Of a DNA stretch of 64,000 nucleotides, positions 1,189 to 50,846 are shown piece by piece. The stretch is from contig DAOVCJ010000002.1 of the NCBI GenBank assembly GCA_030670085.1, forward strand, positions 4,975-68,974, given 5' to 3'. Origin of the DNA: Candidatus Aenigmatarchaeota archaeon (lineage in GTDB: Archaea; Aenigmatarchaeota; Aenigmatarchaeia; QMZP01). The translations under genes were made by a program, and so were the position numbers. Position 1 is the first letter of the stretch; the number at the start of each line of letters is the position of its first letter. The notes under the pieces are model-generated. The model was not told the origin of the DNA, did not search any database, and saw only the letters and a program-made list of their open reading frames with translations.

Positions 1189-1277
1189 ATCTTTCGGAAA
1201 TCATCCGAAAAAGTTCTTCTGAAATTTGAATGAACTATTCCGAAAAACGTGACCCTGAAGCGTGATTGAATGCGAGA

Positions 1278-1307
1278 CCCGACTTGGGTAGACTGAATTA
1301 AGTCGGG
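1278..1307 (+). repeat. Hairpin element copy 1 (CCCGACTT-N14-AAGTCGGG) in the top6B leader
   Basis: Perfect 8-bp stem with a 14-nt loop gggtagactgaatt. The 3' stem runs straight into GGAGG. Confidence 0.8.
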
Positions 1308-1322
1308 AGGCGAAGATTGGAA

Positions 1323-1352
1323 GCCGGCTTGGGGCAATTGAACAAAGCCGGA
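1323..1352 (+). repeat. Hairpin element copy 2 (GCCGGCTT-N14-AAGCCGGa), in tandem 45 nt after copy 1
   Basis: Stem pairs 7 of 8 with a 14-nt loop ggggcaattgaaca. The 3' stem overlaps the GGAGG lying 9 nt before the top6B ATG at 1363. Confidence 0.75.
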
Positions 1353-1362
1353 GGTCGAAGGT

Positions 1363-6398: not shown

Positions 6399-6403
6399 TA
6401 ATT

Positions 6404-6787
6404 ATGGAAGAGGAAATCAGAAAGGAGGAACCCAGACCAGAAGAGAAAAAGGAAGAGCCAGAAGAAGCGAAAGAAGAAAAGAAAGAAGAGACCGAGGAAA
6501 AACCAAAGGAAGAAAAACCAAAAGAAATAGTGGAAAGGAAACCCTGGACAAGGTGGACGATGGAAGAGAGAAAAGAACACTTGAAGAAGAGGAGACATGG
6601 TCCAAGGGAAAGATGGTTTGTTCTGCTTTTCTTCTCAATCCTGTTCATTGTATTCCTATCAGCACTGTCCTATTCAATAGTTTACCAGATGGACCCATCC
6701 CTAATAGTAACACTGATTGCAGTCGTTGTTATAATATCCATAGTGGGTATTTTCTACACACAGAACATATGGTATAGAACAGAGTAA
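6404..6787 (+). CDS. Hypothetical protein with an E/K-rich N-terminus and a C-terminal transmembrane region
   Basis: ORF of 127 aa. Low-complexity EEK repeats are followed by two hydrophobic helices. No recognisable domain. Confidence 0.35.
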   Translation: MEEEIRKEEPRPEEKKEEPEEAKEEKKEETEEKPKEEKPKEIVERKPWTRWTMEERKEHLKKRRHGPRERWFVLLFFSILFIVFLSALSYSIVYQMDPSLIVTLIAVVVIISIVGIFYTQNIWYRTE

Positions 6788-9299: not shown

Positions 9300-10076
9300 T
9301 TAAAACTCGCCTCTTTTGCTGAAGAACTTCTCATATTCCAGCGCAGTTTTTTCATAATCCTGTATAAAATTCTCATAGCTCTTTATCATCTTCTGGTCAG
9401 TGAGTCTTGTGACTGGTTCTGATCTTAGCTTCTCAATCCTGTCCCTGAATTTTTTGATTATGCTTTCGCACATCTTTGTCTCGAATTCATAGATATTTCT
9501 TACAAGTCTGGATTTCCTTTTCCTCCAAGTAGAGATTAGAATCGAGTCTATCTCAGGCTCAGAACCAGGCTCATATGACTTTATCTTGATATCCGTTATG
9601 AGCTTCCTAAGTTTAAGCTTCTCCCTTTTGTTAAGTATCAGTTTTTTCGCTCTCTTCAGAGTAAGGGAATCAAAGTACGCGAAAAGCTCGCTCACTACAT
9701 CGAACCTGGTCATGACATACCAGAGCAGTCCCAGGAAGAAGATATAGTAGTTTATGTAAATGATGGAGTCTATTAGAAATTTCTCTATAAGAATATTGTA
9801 AGACCAAAGAACCAGGGTCATCCCTGATGTTAACACTGTTAGTAAGGCATGAGACACCATATACCCAGAAGACTGAATCACTACGAATTTCTTCATCTTC
9901 TTTTCCATAAACAATGCAACATACCAGCTTATTCCGGAATGCAGAATGTAGAACATTATGAAGTATAAGTAGTATGGGAACCCGAATATGATTGCTACTG
10001 TGAAGCTGAATATCCCCATGCAAAAATAGTAGTAATGGATTATCTGGAAATACTTAACACCAATATAGATGTTCAT
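9300..10076 (-). CDS. Hypothetical membrane protein, paralog A (four TM helices plus a C-terminal coiled soluble domain)
   Basis: 258 aa in a low-GC insert. About 75% amino-acid identity to the adjacent paralog B. Confidence 0.5.
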   Translation of the reverse strand: MNIYIGVKYFQIIHYYYFCMGIFSFTVAIIFGFPYYLYFIMFYILHSGISWYVALFMEKKMKKFVVIQSSGYMVSHALLTVLTSGMTLVLWSYNILIEKFLIDSIIYINYYIFFLGLLWYVMTRFDVVSELFAYFDSLTLKRAKKLILNKREKLKLRKLITDIKIKSYEPGSEPEIDSILISTWRKRKSRLVRNIYEFETKMCESIIKKFRDRIEKLRSEPVTRLTDQKMIKSYENFIQDYEKTALEYEKFFSKRGEF

Positions 10077-10102: not shown

Positions 10103-10876
10103 TCAATAGTTCTTTTTGCTGAAGAACTTTTCATATCCCAGCGCAGTCCTTTCATAATCCTGTATAAACTTTTCATAACTCTTTATCATCTTCTGGTCAG
10201 TGAGGGTCAGATCTGGTTTTGATCTTATTTTCTCAATACTCTCCCTGAATTTCTCGATTATCTTCTCGCACATCTTTGTCTCGAATTCATAGATATTTCT
10301 CTCGATGTTTGACTTTCTTTCCCTCCATGCAGATATCAGAATCGAGTCTATCTCAGGTTCAGAACCAGGTTCATAGGACTCTATTTTGAGATCAGTAATG
10401 AGCTTTCTAAGACCAAGCTCCTCCCTTTTGTTAAGTATCAGTTTTTTCGCTCTCTTCAGAGTAAGGGAATCAAAGTACTCGAAGAGTCCACCCACTAAAT
10501 TGAACTTGGTCATGGTATACCAGAGCAGTCCCAGGAAGAACACGAAGTAGTTTATCTGAATAATAGAGTCTATTAAAAACCTCTCTATAAATACCTGGTA
10601 ATACCACAGAAACAGGGTCAGCCCTGCTGTTAAGAATGTTAATAAAATATGGGACACCATATAGCTATTGGATTGTATCACCACGAATTTCTTCATCTTC
10701 CTTTCCATAAAATATGCGACGTACCAGCTTATTGCAGAATGGATGATGCAGAAGATTATGAAGAATATGGAGTAGGGGAACCCGAATATGATCGCTGCCG
10801 TGAAGCTGAATATCCCCATGCAGAAATAGTAGTAATGAATCATCTGAAAATACTCAACACCAATATAGAGACCCAT
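10103..10876 (-). CDS. Hypothetical membrane protein, paralog B (tandem duplicate of 9300..10076)
   Basis: 257 aa. Long identical DNA runs with paralog A, for example gttaagtatcagttttttcgctctcttcagagtaagggaatcaaagtac. Confidence 0.5.
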   Translation of the reverse strand: MGLYIGVEYFQMIHYYYFCMGIFSFTAAIIFGFPYSIFFIIFCIIHSAISWYVAYFMERKMKKFVVIQSNSYMVSHILLTFLTAGLTLFLWYYQVFIERFLIDSIIQINYFVFFLGLLWYTMTKFNLVGGLFEYFDSLTLKRAKKLILNKREELGLRKLITDLKIESYEPGSEPEIDSILISAWRERKSNIERNIYEFETKMCEKIIEKFRESIEKIRSKPDLTLTDQKMIKSYEKFIQDYERTALGYEKFFSKKNY

Positions 10877-11015
10877 ACAATTTTATAGGATTTCTGGGTT
10901 TATCAATACCAAAAGCAAGCCCACAAAAACCGCTTTATTAACCCGGAATAAACTTAAATATATTATGAATACAGTATATAGTTAATAATCACGGGAAAGC
11001 AACCAAAGAGTGTAT

Positions 11016-11045
11016 GACGGCTTGGACATACTGGGTTAAGCCGTC
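11016..11045 (+). repeat. Hairpin element copy 3 (GACGGCTT-N14-AAGCCGTC) in the leader of the L4 operon
   Basis: Perfect 8-bp stem with a 14-nt loop. Lies 16 nt upstream of the rpl4 ATG and downstream of AT-rich TATA-like sequence around 10953-10983. Confidence 0.8.
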
Positions 11046-11060
11046 CAACCGAGTGATGGT

Positions 11061-13739: not shown

Positions 13740-14558
13740 ATGTTGAAAGACTACTTCGTAAAGCAGGGGATAAAGGAAGTGGAGATAGAGAAGTTCATAA
13801 GGACACGGTTCCCTTACGGTGATTACTCCAAGACAGAACTTCAGAGAACGCCCCTCGGAATAAAAATCATAATATACACAAACAAGCCCGGAAGGATCAT
13901 AGGCCGCGGGGGTAAAAACATAAATGAGATAACAGAGATGATAAAGAAGAAGTTCGGTTTTGAGAACCCACAGATTGATGTCAAGGCAGTGAGGAATCCC
14001 AACCTTGACCCCAGGATAGTAGCGAAACAGATAGCCTCCGCACTTGAGAGGGGGTACAACTACAAGAAGATAGGAAACCTCTCCATGAAGAGGGTTATGG
14101 AGTCTGGAGCGATAGGAGTGGAGATAATTATATCCGGAAGGCTTGGTGGCGGTGGAGGAAAGAGCATGACAGGAAAATTCATTACCGGTTACCTGAAGCA
14201 CTGCGGGCAACCCGCGAAAGACCTGGTGGATTATGGGTTTGAGGAGGCCAACACAAAGCCCGGGAAGATAGGGATAAAAGTCAGGATAATGAAGGAATTC
14301 ATGGACATATCGGGTGAGATAAGGAAAACCTTGGAACCGGAAGAGGAGATAGAGAAACCGAAGGAAGAGGAGCCCGAAAAGAAGGAGGAAAAGAAACCCG
14401 AGAAAAAACCCACGAAAAAACCCGCAAAGAAACCAAAGAAGACTGAAAAGAAATCCACGAAGAAACCAAAGAAAACAGAAAAACCCAAGAAAGTGAAAAA
14501 ACCGAAGAAGAAAACCACAAAGAAACAAAAGCCCGGAAAGAGGGCAAAAAAGAAGTGA
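13740..14558 (+). CDS. rps3: 30S ribosomal protein S3 (uS3) with a K/P/E-rich C-terminal tail of about 70 aa
   Basis: Start at MLKDYFVKQGIKEVEIEKFI, where ATGA overlaps the L22 stop. Carries a KH domain (IIGRGGKNINEI). The tail is KPEKKPTKKPAKKPKK... Confidence 0.88.
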   Translation: MLKDYFVKQGIKEVEIEKFIRTRFPYGDYSKTELQRTPLGIKIIIYTNKPGRIIGRGGKNINEITEMIKKKFGFENPQIDVKAVRNPNLDPRIVAKQIASALERGYNYKKIGNLSMKRVMESGAIGVEIIISGRLGGGGGKSMTGKFITGYLKHCGQPAKDLVDYGFEEANTKPGKIGIKVRIMKEFMDISGEIRKTLEPEEEIEKPKEEEPEKKEEKKPEKKPTKKPAKKPKKTEKKSTKKPKKTEKPKKVKKPKKKTTKKQKPGKRAKKK

Positions 14559-16378: not shown

Positions 16379-16882
16379 GTGAAGAAGGATTGGTCAAGGA
16401 ACTGGGTGAAGTCGGTGCAGCCGAGGAAGCAGAGGAAGTACAGACACAACGCTCCATTACATGTAAGGCATAAGTTTTTGTCCGCGAATCTTTCCCCAGA
16501 ACTGAGGAGGAGGTTCGAAAAGAGATCGATGCCGGTCAGGAAGGGAGACGAGGTAGAGGTCATGAGGGGATCTTCCAAGGGATTGAGGGGAACGGTCAAC
16601 AGGGTTGATGTGAAGAAATGCAGGATTTATGTTGAAGAGATCAAGGTGAAAAAAGTTGATGGTTCCGAGATTATGAAGTCACTTCAGCCATCAAATCTCA
16701 GAATAGTAAAACTCAGTCTCGATGACAAGATGAGGCAGAGGGTTTTTGAAAGGACAGAAGAGAAACCGAAGGAAGAAAAGCCCGAAAAAAAGGAGGAAAA
16801 GAAACCCAAAAAGAAAGAAGAAAAAAAGGAGAAGAAAAAGAAAGAAAAGAAAAAGGAAAGGAGAAAGAAGGAGAAAAAGTGA
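16379..16882 (+). CDS. rpl24: 50S ribosomal protein L24 (uL24), GTG start, with a K/E-rich C-terminal tail
   Basis: KOW motif (VRKGDEVEVMRGSSKGLRGTV). The GTG start sits directly after the L14 stop. Tail EKPKEEKPEKKEEKKPKKKEEKK. Confidence 0.8.
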   Translation: MKKDWSRNWVKSVQPRKQRKYRHNAPLHVRHKFLSANLSPELRRRFEKRSMPVRKGDEVEVMRGSSKGLRGTVNRVDVKKCRIYVEEIKVKKVDGSEIMKSLQPSNLRIVKLSLDDKMRQRVFERTEEKPKEEKPEKKEEKKPKKKEEKKEKKKKEKKKERRKKEKK

Positions 16883-17564: not shown

Positions 17565-17602
17565 GGGGATAAAGTGAAAGCCCGCATCGGAATAACTTGA
17601 GA

Positions 17603-17632
17603 GGCGGCTTAATTCGATTAACTAAAGTCGCC
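17603..17632 (+). repeat. Hairpin element copy 5 (GGCGGCTT-N14-AAGTCGCC) in the S4e-L5 intergenic region
   Basis: 8-bp stem that includes one G.U pair, with a 14-nt loop aattcgattaacta. Nested inside an outer helix CCCGCAT (17581-87) / ATGCGGG (17651-57), which is followed by AGGTGATGAT and the ATG at 17668. Confidence 0.75.
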
Positions 17633-17667
17633 ATGCGATTCGTTGAACAAATGCGGGAGGTGATGAT

Positions 17668-25114: not shown

Positions 25115-25125
25115 ACCTCTGGATG

Positions 25126-25155
25126 GGCGACTTTATTCAATTGCTCCAAGTCACC
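25126..25155 (+). repeat. Hairpin element copy 7 (GGCGACTT-N14-AAGTCaCC)
   Basis: Stem pairs 7 of 8 with a 14-nt loop tattcaattgctcc. Intergenic. Confidence 0.7.
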
Positions 25156-25173
25156 TTTCGATTCGTTTGGATG

Positions 25174-25203
25174 GATGGCTTGTTCTGATTGGCCCAAGCC
25201 ATC
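25174..25203 (+). repeat. Hairpin element copy 8 (GATGGCTT-N14-AAGCCATC), in tandem 48 nt after copy 7
   Basis: Perfect 8-bp stem with a 14-nt loop gttctgattggccc. Confidence 0.75.
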
Positions 25204-25307
25204 GTTCGAAACTATGGGAGGTGTGGGACTTGTGAACCAAAGTTTTATAAAGGCGTTAATCCAATTTCTTATTTAATACCATTTTCAATGGAGTTTTGAT
25301 AGAAATG

Positions 25308-25448
25308 GCATGTCATGACTGTGGAAAGCACGTTCCACTAAGAATTTGTGAAAAACACAACCCACCTCAAGCAAAGATATGCAAAGACTGCTGTATCTCT
25401 AAGATGAGCGGACACGGCTGCCGCTGGTTTGAGCTCTGCTGGAAATAA
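25308..25448 (+). CDS. Small Cys-rich zinc-ribbon protein (46 aa)
   Basis: MACHDCGKHVPLRICEKHNPPQAKICKDCC...HGCRWFELCWK. Below the track threshold. Follows the tandem hairpins. Confidence 0.3.
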   Translation, partial: ACHDCGKHVPLRICEKHNPPQAKICKDCCISKMSGHGCRWFELCWK

Positions 25449-29299: not shown

Positions 29300-29557
29300 A
29301 TGGAAGAAGAAAAGAAAAATGAAGTGGAAGAAGAAGAGAAAGAAGAAACAGAAGAAGAAAAAAAGGAAGAAGAGAAAGAAGAAGTGAAAAAAGATAGTGA
29401 GAAGGAACAGGAAAAGGACAGATTCGGAAGAACACTGTACACTGCAACGTGTTCTGATTGCGGAAAAGAGACAAAGGTCCCCTTCAAGCCGTCAGGAGAC
29501 AAACCTGTCTATTGCATGGAATGTTACCAAAAGCACAGACCGAAGAGAAGCTTTTAA
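29300..29557 (+). CDS. Small acidic protein with a C-terminal CxxC...CxxC zinc ribbon
   Basis: E/K-rich N-terminus, then CSDCGKETKVPFKPSGDKPVYCMECY. Confidence 0.4.
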   Translation: MEEEKKNEVEEEEKEETEEEKKEEEKEEVKKDSEKEQEKDRFGRTLYTATCSDCGKETKVPFKPSGDKPVYCMECYQKHRPKRSF

Positions 29558-30480: not shown

Positions 30481-30542
30481 ACCTCCTGGTTCTTTTAAAA
30501 TAAATAAAAACCATTTTACTATACCTAAGTATATAAGCGTAT

Positions 30543-30572
30543 GACGGCTTGACCATATCGGATTAAGCCGTC
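30543..30572 (+). repeat. Hairpin element copy 9 (GACGGCTT-N14-AAGCCGTC) in the tRNA 5' leader
   Basis: Perfect 8-bp stem with a 14-nt loop. Flanked by AAGCGTAT, as is copy 10. The AT-rich stretch ttttactatacctaagtatataag (30514-30537) just upstream may be the promoter. Confidence 0.8.
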
Positions 30573-30584
30573 TCTCAAAGGATC

Positions 30585-30788
30585 GCGGGGGTACCCAAGC
30601 GGTCAAAGCGTATGACGGCTTAAACAGATTGGATAAAGCCGTCTGTGACTAAAGGGGCTAGCCTAAGGAGCTAGTGGCTTAGAACCCTTTTCGTTCCAAA
30701 CACACAAAAGCGTTCGTGGAAAAGAAAGGGTGAGTAATGCCTTCCTGGGTTCGAACCTCGAAAACGAGCGAAAATCCCAGCCCCCGCA
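30585..30788 (+). tRNA. Putative class-II (Leu/Ser-like) tRNA gene with multiple non-canonical introns; anticodon unresolved
   Basis: 7 of 7 acceptor pairing GCGGGGG (30585-91) / CCCCCGC (30781-87) plus discriminator A. D-arm TACCCAAGCGGTCAAAG. T-arm CTGGG-TTCGAAC-[19-nt insert with CTCGaaaaCGAG]-CCCAG. Hairpin copy 10 (30614-30643) interrupts the D region. The 204 nt minus about 120 nt of inserts gives the size of a class-II tRNA. Candidate anticodon loops are CTTAGAA (UAG) at 30678-84 or CTAAGGA at 30663-69. Confidence 0.55.
30614..30643 (+). repeat. Hairpin element copy 10 (GACGGCTT-N14-AAGCCGTC) inside the putative tRNA (intron-like)
   Basis: Same flanks as copy 9, which lies 71 nt upstream. 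Loop aaacagattggata. Confidence 0.75.
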
Positions 30789-32663: not shown

Positions 32664-33932
32664 ATGGCAGATAAACCACATATCAACGTAATAACAGCAG
32701 GTCATGTAGACCACGGCAAATCAACCCTAATCGGAAGACTATTGTTCGATTCAGGTTCACTATCAGATCAGGAACTCAGGAAGCTCAAGGAGAAAGCGAA
32801 AGAACTGAAGAAGGAAACATTCGAGTTCGCTTTCGTTATGGATCAGCTGAAGGAGGAAAGAGAGAGGGGTTTGACCATAGACCTCATGTACAAACCAATA
32901 CAAACAGACAAGCTGTACATAACCATAATCGACTGCCCAGGACACAGGGATTTCATCAAGAACATGATAACGGGAGCGAGCCAGGCAGATGCAGCTATTC
33001 TAGTCGTATCAGCAAAGGATGGGGTACAGGAGCAGACAAAGGAGCACCTATACCTCGCAAAGGTTCTTGGAATCACACAGATAGTTGTAGCAGTTAACAA
33101 GATGGACACTGTGGATTACAAAGAAGACAAGTACAATGAGGTAAAGGAGCAGGTTGGCAAGATACTGACAACCCTTGGATACAAGATGGACGATGTACCA
33201 TTCATACCGGTTTCTGCATACGTTGGAGACAACGTGGTCAAGAAATCAGACAAGCTTGGGTGGTTCAAGGGACCGATTTTGATAGAAGCCCTTGACAAGA
33301 CATTCAAGGCACCAGAAAAGCCAGTGGACAAGCCCTTGAGGCTGCCTGTTCAGGATGTCTACACCATAACTGGTGTGGGAACCGTTCCTGTAGGAAGAGT
33401 TGAGACAGGCGTTATGAAGCCAGGAGACAAGATAGTCTTCATGCCAAGCGGCGCAAAGGGTGAAGTAAAGTCAATAGAGATGCACCACAAGCAGCTGGAA
33501 AAGGCAGAGCCAGGAGACAACGTTGGTTTCAACGTGAGAGGTGTAGCGAAAAACGAGATCAGAAGGGGAGATGTTGTCGGACATGACAAAAACCCACCAA
33601 CAGTCGCAAAAGAGTTCACTGGACAGATAATCGTGCTGCAGCATCCGACTGTGGTGACCAAGGGTTATACGCCAGTGTTCCACACCCACACAGCACACGT
33701 TGCATGCAAGATAACAGAGATAGTGAAGAAGATCGATCCGAAGTCAGGAGCAACCATACAGGAGAAACCAGACATGCTGAAATCCGGTGACGCAGCTATA
33801 ATCAAGGTGCAGCCAACACAACCACTCGCTGTAGAAAAGCAGTCAGACTTCCCACAGCTTGCAAAGTTTGCAATCAGGGACATGGGCAAGACAGTTGCCG
33901 CAGGTATCATAATAGACTTGGTAAAGGCTTAA
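32664..33932 (+). CDS. tuf: Translation elongation factor EF-1alpha
   Basis: [17 protein letters not shown] and NKMD GTPase motifs. Length 422 aa. Confidence 0.95.
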
Positions 33933-34033
33933 TTTAATCCTTTACCCTTTCTTTTTATTTTTGTTTTGTTAGTTCTTTTTCTAGCTGAATCGAGATAATC
34001 AGAATAAAAGCGCTGGGAGAGGGAAATTCGAGG

Positions 34034-34063
34034 GACGACTTTTTTCAATATACCCAAGTCGTC
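34034..34063 (+). repeat. Hairpin element copy 11 (GACGACTT-N14-AAGTCGTC) downstream of tuf
   Basis: Perfect 8-bp stem with a 14-nt loop ttttcaatataccc, followed by CATGCG as in copy 5. Confidence 0.8.
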
Positions 34064-34227
34064 ATGCGCTTTTCGAACCCCCATGCCCATACGGGCACAC
34101 GCTATTTATTCCCGTTTTTGCTCACCCGCTTTTTGTGAAAGCGGCGAGCTCCTGTAAAAAGCGGGTCTCCAAGCGTGCTCCTTAACCATTCGGACATCCC
34201 AGCACAATCAAGCCCTTATCGCTGTAA

Positions 34228-45401: not shown

Positions 45402-47882
45402 ATGGTCAGACTGCAAAGAATTGCGATTCAGGGTTTCAAATCATTCAAGAGAAAGGTTTCTATACCATTCCCTCCTGGTTTTTCTGTGATAACAGGGCCC
45501 AATGGCTCGGGCAAGAGCAACCTGAGCGATGCAATATCCTTTGTTCTGGGCAGGACATCCTCCAGGACCCTGAGGGCGAAGAAAACACAGGAGCTTATCT
45601 TCCACGGCAGCAAGAAAAAGACAGGCTCTGATTTCGCAAAGGTGACGATCTACTTTGACAACTCAAAAAAGATTCTCCCACTAGAAGACGAATCCGTCTC
45701 GATAAGCAGAAGGATCAACAAGAAGGGTGTAAGCACCTACAGGCTCAATGGAAGGGTTATAACAAGGCAGCAGATAATCGATATCTTTTCTCAGGCAGAC
45801 ATTCACCCTGACGGGCACAACATAATACAGCAGGGGGATGTAAACCAGATGGTTGAGATGGATGCAGTGGAGAGAAGGGAAATCATAGATGAGATATCCG
45901 GGATAGCGGAGTACGATGATAAGAAGAGAAAGGCAGAGAAGGAACTGGAGCAGATTGATGGAAGGATAAGGGAGGCAGAGATTCTCCTGCAGGAAAAATA
46001 TCAAGTGATAGAGAAACTCAGAAAAGAGAGGGATGCCGCGCTCAGGTATAAAAAGTTTGATAAGGAGCTCAAGGATGTGAGGGCAGCACTCATATGGAAG
46101 GATTTCTCCGGAGCAAAAAAAGGGCTTGGTAACGCCAGTGAGAAACTGGGGGAAAAGGAAAAGCTGATGAAGAAGCTCGAGAAGGACATAAGGGATTATG
46201 ATGAGAAGATTGCGAAGGAGGAGGAGAGGCTCAATGGCCTGACCAAGCAGGCCCTGAAGGCATCAGAGCAGATAGAAGTGTCAAACAGGATAACAAAGCT
46301 CAGGTCAGAGCTTGAGATAAAGCAGAACAAGATAGACTCCAACAGGAGGGAGATAGAGGGGATGCAGAGCCTTATCGAGAGACTGAGCCAGATTGATACG
46401 AAGATAAGCCCTGCCTTCAAGTCTGTTGAAAGCCTTCAAGGCGTTTTCGGAACAGTTTTGAACCTGATAAATGTACCGGCAGAGTACCGGGTCGCTGTGG
46501 AAGTCGCAGGTGGAGGACATCTTAACGATATAGTGGTTGACACCACAAACAACGTAATCAGATGCGTAAAGCACCTGAAAGTGAATAAGATAGGAAGGGC
46601 AAGGTTCCTTCCCCTGGACAGGATAAGGGGCATGAAGAAACCACTGCCACCGGGCGCGATAAAGTGGCTCTCAGACCTTATCAGGTATGAACCCAGGTAC
46701 GAGCCGGTTATGAGTTATATTTTCGGATCAACGGCCCTGGTGAAGGATACTGACAGGGCAGGAGAGGTCGCAAAGAAACAGAGGGTAAGGATGGTAACCC
46801 TTGACGGAGACCTTTTCGAGGCATCAGGCGCAATCACAGGCGGGTTCTACAGGAAAAGGGGAGCAGGAGCCCTGAACGAGGTAAACAAATACCTTGAGGA
46901 CAAGAAAAAACTGGAGAACGAAATAGATGCTTTGTACGTTCAGATAAAGGACATAAACGATGACCTGGAGATACTGGCTGAAAAGGAGAAGAGGACCAAG
47001 ACAGCTGACCTGGAAAAGGAGAGGATAAGGCTTGACCAGAGACTGCATGAGTTCAGGGAAAATAGGAAGGAGGCGTATGATACAAGGGTTGAGCTCCAGC
47101 AGGACATATCAAAGCTCAACATACAGAAGGCAAAGCTTGAGGCAAAGTCCGATGATCTCAAATTCCAGTGGGATGAGAGAGAGGAGATAGAGGATGAGAT
47201 TCATGACTACATAAACATGAGCGTTGCAAAACTTAGGGAGCTCGAAACCAATGCGATAGAGGGGATCCAGACACTGGGGCCGGTCAACATGAAGGCGTTG
47301 GAGGAATTCGATATGATTAAAACCGAATTTGAGGACTTCAGGGAAAAGGTGGACAAGATAGTTGATGAAAAAAACTCCATAATGGATACTGTGAAAAAGA
47401 TAGAGAAAAAGAGAAAGGAGACCTTCATGTACACCATGAGCTCCATAGCCAACCATTTCAGGGAGGTTTACCTTGAACTCACTGAAGGGGAAGCTGACCT
47501 GGAGTTGGAGGATCCAGAGAATCTCGATTCAGGTCTTTTAATCAAGGCGCAGCCGCCTGGGAAAAAACTCCTGCACATAGATTCCATGTCCGGTGGAGAG
47601 AAAACCCTTACAGCCTTTGCATTTGTGTTCGCTGTTCAGAGGCACAAACCCACTCCATTCTACATACTTGACGAGGCTGATTCAACACTTGACAAGGAGA
47701 ACACGAGGAGGGTTGTAAATCTTATCAAGAAGCAGTCAAATCTTGCGCAGTTCATAGTCATATCCCACAATGACGCCCTGGTGAGGGAGGCAGACCAGAT
47801 ATACGGGGTTTCGATGGAGGACGGGGAATCCAAGATAGTCGGAATAGAGCTACCCCGGGTGGAAAAACAGAAAAATAACTGA
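45402..47882 (+). CDS. smc: Chromosome segregation protein SMC (short form, 826 aa)
   Basis: Walker A GPNGSGKSN, a hinge (GTVLNLINVPAEYRVAVEVAGGGHLNDIVV), and a C-terminal signature plus Walker B LSGGEKTLTA...YILDEADSTLD. Confidence 0.8.
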   Translation: MVRLQRIAIQGFKSFKRKVSIPFPPGFSVITGPNGSGKSNLSDAISFVLGRTSSRTLRAKKTQELIFHGSKKKTGSDFAKVTIYFDNSKKILPLEDESVSISRRINKKGVSTYRLNGRVITRQQIIDIFSQADIHPDGHNIIQQGDVNQMVEMDAVERREIIDEISGIAEYDDKKRKAEKELEQIDGRIREAEILLQEKYQVIEKLRKERDAALRYKKFDKELKDVRAALIWKDFSGAKKGLGNASEKLGEKEKLMKKLEKDIRDYDEKIAKEEERLNGLTKQALKASEQIEVSNRITKLRSELEIKQNKIDSNRREIEGMQSLIERLSQIDTKISPAFKSVESLQGVFGTVLNLINVPAEYRVAVEVAGGGHLNDIVVDTTNNVIRCVKHLKVNKIGRARFLPLDRIRGMKKPLPPGAIKWLSDLIRYEPRYEPVMSYIFGSTALVKDTDRAGEVAKKQRVRMVTLDGDLFEASGAITGGFYRKRGAGALNEVNKYLEDKKKLENEIDALYVQIKDINDDLEILAEKEKRTKTADLEKERIRLDQRLHEFRENRKEAYDTRVELQQDISKLNIQKAKLEAKSDDLKFQWDEREEIEDEIHDYINMSVAKLRELETNAIEGIQTLGPVNMKALEEFDMIKTEFEDFREKVDKIVDEKNSIMDTVKKIEKKRKETFMYTMSSIANHFREVYLELTEGEADLELEDPENLDSGLLIKAQPPGKKLLHIDSMSGGEKTLTAFAFVFAVQRHKPTPFYILDEADSTLDKENTRRVVNLIKKQSNLAQFIVISHNDALVREADQIYGVSMEDGESKIVGIELPRVEKQKNN

Positions 47883-48280: not shown

Positions 48281-48364
48281 ATTAATTAATTGTATTCTAG
48301 GAATAAAAACCTAAAATCTGCTAAATCTTATTAAACTTAAATTTATACTTTCTAAATATTCTCC

Positions 48365-49447
48365 ATGTCAAATAAGGGAGACGACTTGGACAGATTGGAC
48401 AAGGTCGTCCAACCAAAAGAATCGAATGACGACTTGGTCAAATCAGATAAAGTCGTTCAACCAAAGGAATGGCCTGTTGCAGAGGGAAGGTACAAAGTGG
48501 GAAATAAGGATTCCCCGATTGCAGTGTGTACAATGGCATCTGTTGAGATGAATATGCCCATGGACAAGATCGCAATCATTGGAAAATGTGTGACCGAGAA
48601 CTTAGGGGTAGAGAAGATAATAAAGAACACGATATCAAACCCGAAAATAAGATACTTGATATTCTGCGGCAAGGAATCGCACGGACATTTCGTGGGCCAG
48701 GCTATGAAGTCCCTGAAGGAAAACGGAGTAGACGGGGAGAAGAGAATCATCGGAGCAAAGGGAGGCATGCCTGTTCTAAAGAACCTTGAGATGGAGGAGA
48801 TAGAGAGGTTCAGGGAACAGGTAGAACCGATTGATATGGCAGACGAGACAGACACTGCAAAGATACTGGCAAAGGTTAATGAGCTGTTTGAAAGGAACCC
48901 AGGGCCATTCGAAGGAGGGAGTATGGAGACAGAAGAAGAGGTAAGGGAGACCAGGGCAGAGTTCCACCCTATCGCCGAATGGATGAAGGATCCAGAGGGC
49001 TTTTTCACAATATACCCAAATGCGGAGAGAGAGGAGATAGTTGCTGAACACCACGACAACGAAGGCAAGATGAAGAGCAGAATCTTTGGGAAATCAGCAG
49101 AAGACATATACCACCATATAATAAAAAACAACCTGGTTTCCAGGTATGACCACGCAGCCTACTTGGGAAGGGAGCTTGCAAAAGCAGAGCTTGCGATGAG
49201 AAACCAGCTGGACTATGAACAGGACGCTGATTTAAAAACCATGAAACAGAATAATGAACAAACAGAGCCAACGGTTCCCAGAGAGCCGGAAATTTCCAGA
49301 CCACTTCCCCCAAAACCAAAAAAACCGAAAGGTAGGTTTCTCACCTACATCAAGGGGGGAAGGGAGATCGCAGTGGAGGACTTTACAAGACAGGACAATG
49401 AATTCAGGGCTCTTCTCAGGGAAAGAGGAATGTCAAGAATATTTTAG
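48365..49447 (+). CDS. MtrA-like protein (tetrahydromethanopterin S-methyltransferase subunit A family homolog) with an extra C-terminal domain
   Basis: WPVAEGRYKVGN...IAVCT...IIGKCVTENLGVEKII...SNPKIRYLIFCGKESHGHFVGQA...ENGVDGEKRIIGAKGGMPVLKNLEMEEIERF follows the MtrA pattern (WP..GEY.VG..VAV.T..G.C.TEN.GIEK..SNP.IRYLI..G.E..GH..G). The N-terminal 32 aa are two in-frame hairpin elements. Confidence 0.55.
   Translation: MSNKGDDLDRLDKVVQPKESNDDLVKSDKVVQPKEWPVAEGRYKVGNKDSPIAVCTMASVEMNMPMDKIAIIGKCVTENLGVEKIIKNTISNPKIRYLIFCGKESHGHFVGQAMKSLKENGVDGEKRIIGAKGGMPVLKNLEMEEIERFREQVEPIDMADETDTAKILAKVNELFERNPGPFEGGSMETEEEVRETRAEFHPIAEWMKDPEGFFTIYPNAEREEIVAEHHDNEGKMKSRIFGKSAEDIYHHIIKNNLVSRYDHAAYLGRELAKAELAMRNQLDYEQDADLKTMKQNNEQTEPTVPREPEISRPLPPKPKKPKGRFLTYIKGGREIAVEDFTRQDNEFRALLRERGMSRIF
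48380..48409 (+). repeat. Hairpin element copy 12 (GACGACTT-N14-AgGTCGTC) inside the N-terminal coding region of the MtrA-like gene
   Basis: 8-bp stem including one U.G pair, with a 14-nt loop ggacagattggaca. Encodes DDLDRLDKVV. Confidence 0.7.
48428..48457 (+). repeat. Hairpin element copy 13 (GACGACTT-N14-AAGTCGTt), in tandem 48 nt (16 codons) after copy 12
   Basis: 14-nt loop ggtcaaatcagata. Encodes DDLVKSDKVV. Confidence 0.7.
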
Positions 49448-49478
49448 AGATTTGAATTGGAAATCAAGGGTGGTGAGA

Positions 49479-50273
49479 ATGGAGAATGAGAACAAGGAGA
49501 ATGCAAGTAAGAATCCTTATCAGCCCCTCATAGTCAGGGGTAAAAATCTAGGTGAGGCATGGGAGAATGCGGTAAGAGCAATGATGCAGAAGGGGTATGA
49601 CAGGTTCGTGAAGGCACCTGAATACCAGACATGGACAAAGGATTCCCCAATGTTCATAATGGTTTCGGATCCATTTGCAGATCCAAGATTCTCTCCAAAG
49701 GCCCCGCTCACGCAGGACATGGCGGATGAGTATGCAAGGAACCTGGTCAACGGGATGCCAAAGGAGAAAGAGAATTCGTTCGATTACACGTATTACTCAA
49801 GGCTGAGGCATTACCCGGACTGCCTGATAAGGGCGGGCATGCCTGCTGTCTCGGATGAGCATGAGATCAAGGACTATATAAGAAAGGTTTCAGGAGGCAA
49901 GTGCATTGTGCAGAGAATAGACCAGGTGGAGAAAGCGATCGAGATATTCAAGAAGGACCCGACCAGGAGGACAGTGGTAATGCATACTTGGATTCCCATG
50001 CGGGACCTGGCAAAGTTCACGCCAGAGAGGAAAGACACATCATCGCCCTGCCTTGTTCTGGCCCATCCGCAACTGGTTGAGGAAAAACTCCACCTCAACG
50101 TTGTGATGAAGACCAACGACCTCTATTCAGCCTGGCCTGGCAACGCCTATGCATTCACTGCTCTGCAGAAGTATATGGCAGACAAGATAGGTGTTGGGGT
50201 CGGTCACTACACACACTTCTCCATTGCCATGCAGGTGTACCAGGAAGTTTATGAAGCTGCAAAAATGGTTTAG
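49479..50273 (+). CDS. thyA: Thymidylate synthase ThyA (archaeal type)
   Basis: RRTVVMHTWIPMRDL...SPCLVLAHPQL...NDLYSAWPGNAYAFTALQ...GHYTHFSIAMQVY matches the ThyA motifs (RRxxxxAWNP, PCH, DxFLGxPFNIASYALL, GDAHIY). Start placed at MENENKE (ATG 49479). Confidence 0.75.
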   Translation: MENENKENASKNPYQPLIVRGKNLGEAWENAVRAMMQKGYDRFVKAPEYQTWTKDSPMFIMVSDPFADPRFSPKAPLTQDMADEYARNLVNGMPKEKENSFDYTYYSRLRHYPDCLIRAGMPAVSDEHEIKDYIRKVSGGKCIVQRIDQVEKAIEIFKKDPTRRTVVMHTWIPMRDLAKFTPERKDTSSPCLVLAHPQLVEEKLHLNVVMKTNDLYSAWPGNAYAFTALQKYMADKIGVGVGHYTHFSIAMQVYQEVYEAAKMV

Positions 50274-50282
50274 AGGGATGGA

Positions 50283-50846
50283 ATGATTTTACCAGACCAC
50301 GAGATCAGGAAACTGCTTAAAGAGGGAAGGATAGTCATAGAACCCCTGGACGAAGACGTTCAGATACAGCCTGCAGGTGTTGACCTGAGGCTCGGGAACG
50401 AGTTCAGGATTTTCAAGGCAACGTCCCTCCCCTACATAGACACCAGAAAGAAACCAGAGAACTATACCGATACCATAAAGATCAGTGATGACCAACCATT
50501 TATCATACACCCTGGAGAGTTCGTTCTTGGAACAGTTATGGAGTACATGAAGATACCCAGCGATCTCATGGGCTCTGTTGACGGAAGGTCATCTCTGGGA
50601 AGACTGGGGATAGCCATACATGCAACCTCGGCATCCATAAACCCGGGCTGGGAGGGAAGGTTCGTTCTGGAGATAACCAACATTGGAAGAGCGCCTGTCG
50701 CGATATACCCAGGCATGCGTATCGCCAAACTAACCCTCCACAAACTCTCCTCACCAGCAGAGAAACCATACGGCTCCGGAAGAAAGCATAAGTACCAGAA
50801 ACAGGAAGAAATCTCCCAGAGCAGAATTCATGAAGAAGGAGATTAA
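50283..50846 (+). CDS. dcd: dCTP deaminase (dUTPase superfamily)
   Basis: MILPDHEIRKLLKEGRIVIEP...GVDLRLGNEF...GRSSLGRLGI. Confidence 0.85.
   Translation: MILPDHEIRKLLKEGRIVIEPLDEDVQIQPAGVDLRLGNEFRIFKATSLPYIDTRKKPENYTDTIKISDDQPFIIHPGEFVLGTVMEYMKIPSDLMGSVDGRSSLGRLGIAIHATSASINPGWEGRFVLEITNIGRAPVAIYPGMRIAKLTLHKLSSPAEKPYGSGRKHKYQKQEEISQSRIHEEGD

Follow-up and report, generated by a model that had tools for sequence, protein, structure and literature searches.

The window analyzed here is a stretch of 64,000 nucleotides (nt) from a Candidatus Aenigmatarchaeota archaeon, and our main subject is a pair of short palindromic units that lie near the 5' end of a gene for an MtrA-like protein, in frame with it. 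The protein has 360 amino acids (aa); residues 33-190 match Pfam family PF04208 (MtrA; 3e-54, 183.7 bits against a gathering cut-off of 25), and residues 208-287 match PF14251 (DUF4346, pterin-binding; 3e-26, 92.4 bits). It has 780 homologues, and in a comparison of 28 homologues W36, P37, G41, R42 and Y43 were invariant. Because the Pfam match begins at residue 33 and W36 and P37 are invariant, the conserved MtrA region begins directly after the second unit, which is where an earlier reading of this DNA made without database searches (the sequence-only reading) had placed it. For comparisons between genomes we used the DNA of 11 orthologues, which with the window make 12 loci; loci other than the window are designated by L numbers, and one of these, L005, has an assembly gap over the N-terminus. 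The features of the locus are as follows.

48334-48349, plus strand: A/T-rich promoter-like box AACTTAAATTTATACT, about 16-31 nt 5' of the ATG, kept at the same spacing in 12 loci
48353-48355, plus strand: in-frame TAA stop, four codons 5' of the ATG, read from the sequence
48365-48367, plus strand: start codon ATG of the MtrA-like gene, kept in 12 loci and the sole possible start in L004
48365-49447, plus strand: MtrA-like / DUF4346 gene, open reading frame (ORF) of 360 aa beginning MSNKG-DDLDRLDKVVQPKESN-DDLVKSDKVVQPKEWP-VAEGRY
48372-48419, plus strand: element copy 12, with hairpin 48380-48409 (GACGACTT/AGGTCGTC), encoding KGDDLDRLDKVVQPKE; 41.2 bits, E = 2e-10 with covariance model R2
48420-48467, plus strand: element copy 13, with hairpin 48428-48457 (GACGACTT/AAGTCGTT), encoding SNDDLVKSDKVVQPKE; 47.4 bits, E = 1.9e-12 with covariance model R2
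48908-48925, plus strand: interdomain linker site TTCGAA-GGAGG-N4-ATG, empty in the window by codon-level comparison of the 12 loci

The sequence-only reading had described two in-frame 48-nt hairpin units at the N-terminus, and our analysis confirmed them. The units share 71% identity, and in each a 14-nt loop is closed by an 8-bp stem in which GACGACTT pairs with AAGTCGTC or a sequence close to it. Between them they encode residues 6-37 (DDLDRLDKVVQPKESN / DDLVKSDKVVQPKEWP), an N-terminus that includes the segments GDDLDRLDK and VVQPKESNDDLVK. Residues 1-33 are predicted to be disordered: in the AlphaFold2 model they have a predicted local distance difference test (pLDDT) score below 50 and no secondary structure, and the linker between the two domains scores 60-75. 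The 48-nt tandem repeat falls below the reporting thresholds of Tandem Repeats Finder. RNA folding of 48365-48484 gave z = -1.82, with a predicted fold that pairs arms across both copies and so speaks neither for nor against two separate hairpins.

Both units belong to a hairpin family defined by non-coding copies

Covariance model R2 was built from 12 non-coding and tRNA copies of the hairpin and from no mtrA copies. It recovered both mtrA units in the sense orientation at the scores listed above, far higher than its antisense scores of 15.2 bits (48372-48419) and 18.6 bits (48420-48467). The same model also recovered coding copies at eight orthologous loci with 27-47 bits and, with 17-21 bits, two further coding copies in L010 and L014; all of these were in the sense orientation. 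These matches show that both mtrA units belong to a family that is defined by its non-coding copies.

The consensus element is a 30-nt hairpin with an 8-bp stem (GACGRCTT/AAGYCGTC) and a 14-nt loop. A short head and tail bring coding copies to about 45-48 nt, and the head varies between TCGAAY, CGAGA and GCGYAT. With 11 occurrences of the core GNCTT-N14-AAGNC, the window far exceeds the 1.28 expected. Across 28 oriented copies, 93.8% of stem cells are paired and 19 cells have changed on both sides, values that none of 500 shuffles reached. Non-Watson-Crick pairs make up 17% of stem pairs in coding copies and 5% in non-coding ones.

The translation start lies upstream of both units

The 5' end of the gene is laid out identically in the 12 loci. 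A box of the form AACTTAAATT(A/T)AT..TTTCYAAWTATTCTYC, assigned as promoter by eye, is followed by ATG at the same spacing in 12/12. In L004 the gene begins ATG TCA AAT TCT GAA TGG CCT, so that a single candidate start precedes the invariant Trp-Pro. The invariance of Trp-Pro and of the residues that follow it across the 28 homologues indicates that translation begins upstream of 48470. Given the conserved box and ATG, the upstream TAA and the sole start in L004, translation starts at ATG 48365, which places the elements within the translated region. On these sequence comparisons, then, ATG 48365 is the true start codon, the existing gene annotation is correct, and the N-terminal repeat is real sequence rather than the result of a mis-called start. 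By analogy with general archaeal promoter geometry, the box would serve as the TATA/B recognition element of an mRNA whose leader is probably very short or absent.

Another possibility, raised by the sequence-only reading for TTG 48434 within copy 13, is that translation starts at a non-ATG codon in or beyond this copy and that both elements form a 5' leader. This TTG is in frame, it would leave a lead-in of 12 residues to Trp-Pro, about as long as in the element-free orthologues, and elements do occur in leaders at other genes of the window. However, it has no Shine-Dalgarno sequence and lies inside the hairpin stem, and several orthologues with a single copy have no equivalent TTG (L011, for example, has TCA instead). 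Since the ATG and the promoter-like box keep a fixed spacing in 12 loci and L004 offers only its ATG before Trp-Pro, the TTG start is not supported and we regard it as very improbable.

Of the element's reading frames a single one is open, and it is the one in which both mtrA copies lie. None of the 16 coding copies has a stop codon in this frame, compared with 6 of the 12 non-coding copies, two of which have it in the last codon.

Copy number varies among orthologues

The number of hairpins between the ATG and the invariant Trp-Pro differs from locus to locus. L003, L004 and L012 have none; L001, L008, L010, L011, L013, L014 and L015 have one; the window and L009 have two. Thus the orthologues do not all carry one conserved N-terminal peptide, which the sequence-only reading had named as the mark of an ancient coding repeat. 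Loci with different copy numbers can be closely similar elsewhere in the gene. L004 (no copy) and L011 (one copy) have 94% nucleotide identity in the domain and are separated by a 51-nt indel, L013 (one copy) and L009 (two copies) likewise have 94% identity, and the window (two copies) has 88% identity to its closest relative L001 (one copy). L012 reads AAC directly followed by CCA AAA GAA where L013 has AAC, a 33-nt hairpin and then CCA AAG GAG, a pair of sequences that looks like the loss of a palindrome alone. The indels that we measured, of 33, 45, 48 and 51 nt, are all multiples of three.

The comparison with L001 is informative at the level of single base pairs. Its only copy lies at the same distance from the ATG as copy 12 of the window and carries a compensatory A-T to G-C change in the stem. 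Where the window reads GAC GAC..GTC GTC (Asp..Val), L001 reads GAC GGC..GCC GTC (Gly..Ala), so the amino acids covary as the stem dictates.

The second site occupied in this gene is the linker between the two domains. The linker site is empty in the window, and codon comparison together with covariance-model matches placed one or two copies there in L003, L008, L010, L012 and L014, in frame and just 5' of a conserved GGAGG-N4-6-ATG. Across the approximately 190 kb represented by the window and 14 loci, coding copies are confined to these two sites of the MtrA-like gene.

As a side observation, the linker itself has an in-frame GGAGG with an ATG 4-6 nt later and the peptide EGGSME, conserved in the window (48908-48925) and 11 orthologues. 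From its sequence this GGAGG-ATG resembles a Shine-Dalgarno sequence with a start codon; translation of the DUF4346 half may start here internally, or the motif may be a scar left when two genes fused.

We considered whether the units could be an ordinary protein-level tandem repeat, a low-complexity linker whose likeness to the non-coding hairpins is coincidental. Many orthologues do share the peptide pattern xDGLxxxxKAVxPKE, which recurs both N-terminally and within the linker, and the N-terminal and internal copies of L010 encode almost identical peptides. However, a nucleotide model that contains no coding copies finds the units with E-values of approximately 1e-10 to 1e-12, the Asp..Val and Gly..Ala replacements follow base pairing, and the peptide is absent from close orthologues as well as from more distant homologues. 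A protein-level origin is therefore hard to credit.

Family members interrupt tRNA genes

Four family members are associated with tRNA genes, three in the window and one in L016. The three window copies were found, with 36-39.5 bits, by covariance model R3, which was built from 23 mRNA-associated copies and from no tRNA-locus copies.

30535-30582, plus strand: copy in the 5' flank or leader of a tRNA-Leu gene; R3 38.7 bits, E = 2e-11
30606-30653, plus strand: copy in the D-loop of the tRNA-Leu gene (30585-30788); R3 36.3 bits; insert of about 44-46 nt
34024-34071, minus strand: copy in the T-loop (59/60) of a tRNA-Ser(GGA) gene (about 34010-34203, minus strand); R3 39.5 bits, E = 1e-11
L016 8051-8098: 48-nt copy in the T-loop of a tRNA-Leu(GAG) gene; 23.3 bits, E = 1.6e-5

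Before element removal, ARAGORN returned no tRNA-Ser or tRNA-Leu call in the window, with or without its intron option, and Rfam likewise returned none. The tRNA-Ser(GGA) gene was called only after the 47-nt T-loop insert had been taken out; it also has a 63-nt canonical intron at 37/38. The tRNA-Leu gene was called only after removal of both the D-loop copy and a 19-nt T-loop intron. It has three interruptions in all, which are the D-loop element, a 60-nt insert at position 39 (from ARAGORN) and the 19-nt intron at 30756-30774. The family members inside these genes must be removed if a functional tRNA is to be made. Standard tRNA finders and Rfam thus miss tRNA genes in these genomes. ARAGORN assigns the window tRNA-Leu the anticodon AAG, which is unusual for archaea.

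We scanned the junctions of these inserts for the bulge-helix-bulge motif that the tRNA splicing endonuclease recognizes. The tRNA-Ser copy is flanked by a textbook motif (hBHBh'), with an outer helix of 5 bp formed by the T-stem, a central TTCG/CGAA helix of 4 bp, an inner helix of 2 bp and bulges AAA/TTT. The D-loop copy of tRNA-Leu has a near-canonical context of the same kind (helix GTCA/TGAC, bulges AAG and TAA). By eye, the 19-nt intron has a perfect hBHBh' motif, with TTCG/CGAA, bulges AAC/AAT and inner pairing CTCG/CGAG; it could be the remnant of a family member.

The corresponding sites in relatives are not always filled. JGI contig Ga0452209_000007, which contains loci L003 and L016, has a tRNA-Leu gene at the same position, with its D-loop and leader intact and empty. 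Its T-loop is filled, and this tRNA-Leu(GAG) gene (in L016) is complete once the T-loop copy has been removed. That copy has only a relaxed splice motif, in which 3 of 4 helix pairs form by eye, and the strict scan detected none; unless the endonuclease tolerates relaxed motifs, this tRNA gene is inactive. We found no tRNA-Ser next to the EF-1alpha gene in L016. In the window EF-1alpha lies at 32664-33932, and its protein is 100% identical to P0122, recorded (NCBI, Logan, ENA) on a 91-kb contig from which the window probably derives.

If the tRNA copies are spliced, the mtrA copies might be as well. In that case the tRNA splicing endonuclease would excise the elements from the mRNA as introns of the bulge-helix-bulge type, and the protein would lack the 32 residues. 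Consistent with this, the tRNA-Ser and tRNA-Leu members have the contexts just described and must be excised, introns of this type are known in archaeal protein-coding genes such as cbf5 (PMC2738675), and in DPANN archaea splicing endonucleases with an extra loop have been reported to accompany more disrupted tRNA genes (PMC5829648). However, when the surroundings of both mtrA copies and of all orthologous coding copies were scanned for a 4-bp helix with two 3-nt bulges, no tight match emerged. In addition, all coding copies keep one open frame and their indels are multiples of three, neither of which splicing would require. Excision from the mRNA is therefore quite improbable.

Copies across the window

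Covariance-model searches found 13 copies in the window, which fits the numbering of the mtrA units as copies 12 and 13 in the sequence-only reading. One correction is needed: three copies are on the minus strand (25116-25163, 25164-25211 and 34024-34071); the plus-strand copies start at 1270, 1315, 11008, 12891, 17595, 20347, 30535, 30606, 48372 and 48420. The copies outside the mtrA and tRNA loci are as follows.

1270-1362, plus strand: tandem copies 1270-1317 and 1315-1362, 5' of the topoisomerase VI-B gene (ATG 1363)
11008-11055, plus strand: copy in the leader of the ribosomal protein L4 gene
12891-12938, plus strand: copy between the L2 and S19 genes
17595-17642, plus strand: copy 5' of the L5 gene
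20347-20394, plus strand: copy 5' of a 64-aa ORF and the S12/S7 genes
25116-25211, minus strand: two tandem copies, 51.2 + 43.2 bits on the minus strand against 22.2 + 32.5 bits on the plus strand

The pair at 25116-25211 lies between the apparently divergent promoters of an OB-fold gene (minus strand) and a Zn-ribbon ORF (plus strand). The latter, at 25296-25448, is an unannotated-looking cysteine-rich ORF of 50 aa (MIEMACHDCGKHVPLRICEKHNPPQAKICKDCC...), and its divergence from the OB-fold gene is what puts the elements between two apparent promoters. A similar cysteine-rich region may be present at the same place in L016, where the orthologous spacer has no copies. A copy in the leader of the L10e gene was found in L004 only. 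Filled and empty orthologous sites were thus observed at the L10e leader, the OB-fold spacer, the tRNA-Leu leader, D-loop and T-loop, the mtrA N-terminus and the linker.

Repeat-finder output for the window is dominated by purine-rich AAG/GAA stretches that encode Lys/Glu-rich tails (6400-6530, 14350-14520, 16760-16880 and 29300-29420), and these mask the hairpin family.

The placement of the copies led us to consider a functional RNA motif that acts near translation starts, either as a protein-binding site or by tuning initiation or the stability of the 5' end; a leaderless mRNA would then force the motif into an in-frame coding position. Several observations are consistent with such a role. 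Wherever the host transcript is clear, the orientation is sense (topoisomerase VI-B, L4, S19, L5, the 20347 locus, the L10e leader of L004, the tRNAs and the mtrA-like gene). For most copies, a Shine-Dalgarno sequence and start codon follow within 60 nt, the stem overlaps GGAGGT in the 1315-1362 copy and in the L004 copy, and the linker copies of the orthologues directly precede a conserved in-frame GGAGG-N4-6-ATG. The stems covary across the family, and the compensatory change in L001 keeps a coding stem paired relative to the window.

Against this, the members in tRNA D- and T-loops can only be removed, and the two copies between apparently divergent promoters may be untranscribed. Genomes that are 88-94% identical differ by gains and losses of copies, some orthologues have none, and stem pairs are broken more often in coding than in non-coding copies. 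A stem maintained as RNA on the sense strand should show more G-U than A-C mismatches. This signature failed: the two were about equally frequent (13 G-U, 10 A-C), so the stem has no sense-strand RNA signature. At gathering thresholds, Rfam had no matches in the window. A functional RNA is therefore an unlikely explanation for the family. Separately, box C/D small RNAs, H/ACA small RNAs, kink-turns and mimicry of a tRNA anticodon arm were dropped as candidates, their boxes or bulges being inconsistently present by eye.

The host gene and other features of the window

The MtrA-like/DUF4346 gene adjoins genes for thymidylate synthase and dCTP deaminase (48365-50846), an arrangement also found in L001, L003, L004, L008, L010, L014 and L015; in L003, L014 and L015 a MazG gene stands between them. 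The gene neighbours suggest a role in pterin- or folate-linked synthesis of deoxythymidine monophosphate, not in methanogenesis. Membership in PF04208 does not imply a subunit of the methanogen methyltransferase.

Two adjacent paralogous genes on the minus strand (9300-10076 and 10103-10876) encode membrane-like proteins of about 257 aa and account for a 300-nt stretch repeated at 800-nt spacing with 84% identity. An SMC-like protein of 826 aa is encoded at 45402-47882 (plus strand), and its orthologues have 823-833 aa. A typical SMC protein has roughly 1170 aa, and this difference in length implies a shortened coiled coil in the SMC-like protein.

Discussion

We favour the view, with a probability of roughly 0.65, that the hairpin is a small palindromic element of Aenigmarchaeota (DPANN) that is mobile or prone to insertion and deletion, and that both mtrA copies lie in frame and are read as a 32-residue tail. 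On this model the elements lie close behind the start codon (15 nt 3' of ATG 48365), and a ribosome would read through them, adding 32 hydrophilic, disordered residues ahead of the WPxxEGRY core. The N-terminus, like the linker in other orthologues, would tolerate an insert of 16 residues, so that copies could persist there. Copy number would shift through insertion of a palindrome, tandem duplication and deletion. More generally, copies would survive where they do no harm, that is, in short leaders and spacers, in tRNA loops if a splice motif forms, and, through the single open frame, in protein regions that are disordered.

The sequence-only reading had also proposed that the element was domesticated into coding sequence. 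Its in-frame coding position is borne out by our data; "domesticated" is too strong a word, because the peptide is predicted to be disordered and stem pairs are broken more often in coding copies. The coding copies look tolerated rather than recruited for a function. That reading was right that the mtrA units bear on mobility, and stronger evidence for it comes from the other loci and from the tRNA genes. The filled and empty sites suggest that the family spreads at the DNA level as a mobile element.

A copy in a tRNA loop could become an intron when its flanks form a bulge-helix-bulge together with the target, for example with the palindromic TTCGAA of the T-loop. This T-loop sequence is self-complementary, and the 3' flank of family members often carries CGAA. 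Such completion of the splice motif by the flanks may be how the tRNA copies that we observed arose.

Several points weigh against a mobile element that is read through as protein. No clear target-site duplication was found: when the direct repeats flanking each copy were compared with the flanks of other copies, p was 0.015 for all copies, a value driven by the tandem ones, and the flank repeats of non-coding copies were not significantly site-specific (p = 0.25). No transposase was identified among the 10 window ORFs scanned against Pfam, a scan that was not aimed at transposases. In the approximately 190 kb, coding copies occur in one gene family only, whereas an element that inserts freely might be expected to turn up in further genes. 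Peptide searches yielded no other host protein: the sole match of a HMMER search against 1.84 billion representatives was an unrelated repeat protein (P0121), and a word-indexed search with a six-variant peptide query returned nothing at E ≤ 10. The compensatory change between the window and L001 lies inside coding sequence, so the hairpin could be under selection and may have a function. Nearly all copies are in sense orientation and near translation starts, the internal GGAGG-ATG included, which a purely selfish element does not predict. Finally, we infer the passage of the ribosome through the elements, that is, translation rather than splicing.

A broader form of the model is that one hairpin family of approximately 30-48 nt inserts into transcribed, promoter-proximal DNA, and that the site decides its fate as a tRNA intron, a leader hairpin or extra protein. 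We put this forward tentatively and rate it at somewhat less than even odds. If it is true, the family would provide a direct and observable source of tRNA-intron gain in archaea and, from the same selfish element, of new coding sequence. The question is testable in these genomes because the same element is found as a tRNA intron, as a leader or intergenic hairpin and, in frame, inside a gene, and because related genomes have both occupied and vacant orthologous sites.

Comparison with known systems

Palindromic repeats that are read as protein are best known from Rickettsia. We found no literature report of protein-read palindromic elements in archaea or of this hairpin family, within a literature coverage that is incomplete. 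To our knowledge, the link to tRNA introns has no counterpart among the Rickettsia elements. According to the account given in PMC10969869, the Rickettsia palindromic elements (Ogata et al. 2000, 2002) are palindromic repeats read through in frame in coding genes. The present family resembles them in being a short palindrome with one open frame, in having both in-frame coding and non-coding copies, in occupying tolerant protein sites and in belonging to a small, reduced genome. It differs in size (approximately 30-48 nt against roughly 100-150 bp), in its archaeal rather than bacterial host and in its unrelated sequence. Rickettsia elements also occur in dozens of unrelated genes, whereas the copies described here are found in one host gene family in the sequence examined.

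Likenesses also exist to repetitive extragenic palindromic (REP) elements and to MITEs (miniature transposable elements with inverted repeats), which are likewise multicopy, short, imperfect palindromes with covarying stems, mostly intergenic, sometimes in tandem and polymorphic for presence or absence (PMC3184786, PMC10969869). Unlike REP elements, our family has no conserved GTAG-type 5' head, and no gene for a REP-associated tyrosine transposase or IS200-like protein was seen, the window being the extent of what was searched. Unlike both groups, it has an orientation tied to the host gene as well as coding and tRNA copies; its size is below that of usual MITEs, and no clear target-site duplication was found for it.

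With the bulge-helix-bulge intron of cbf5 (PMC2738675), the mtrA copies share the form of an extra segment in an archaeal ORF that is gained or lost between lineages. The cbf5 intron is spliced and has the motif, whereas in the mtrA copies the motif is missing and the frame stays open.

The nearest likeness to the tRNA-borne copies is with the transposing tRNA introns of Thermoproteales (Fujishima et al. 2010, as summarized in PMC4090602). In both systems, near-identical short sequences occur at non-canonical positions in D- and T-loops with bulge-helix-bulge junctions, and not all relatives carry them, a pattern implying that introns are gained at the DNA level. Unlike the Thermoproteales introns, which are reported in tRNA genes, the present family is also found in leaders, in spacers and in frame within coding sequence that has no splice motif, and its host is a member of the DPANN archaea rather than of the Crenarchaeota. 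By this analogy, the hairpin family would extend the idea of tRNA-intron transposition proposed for Thermoproteales.

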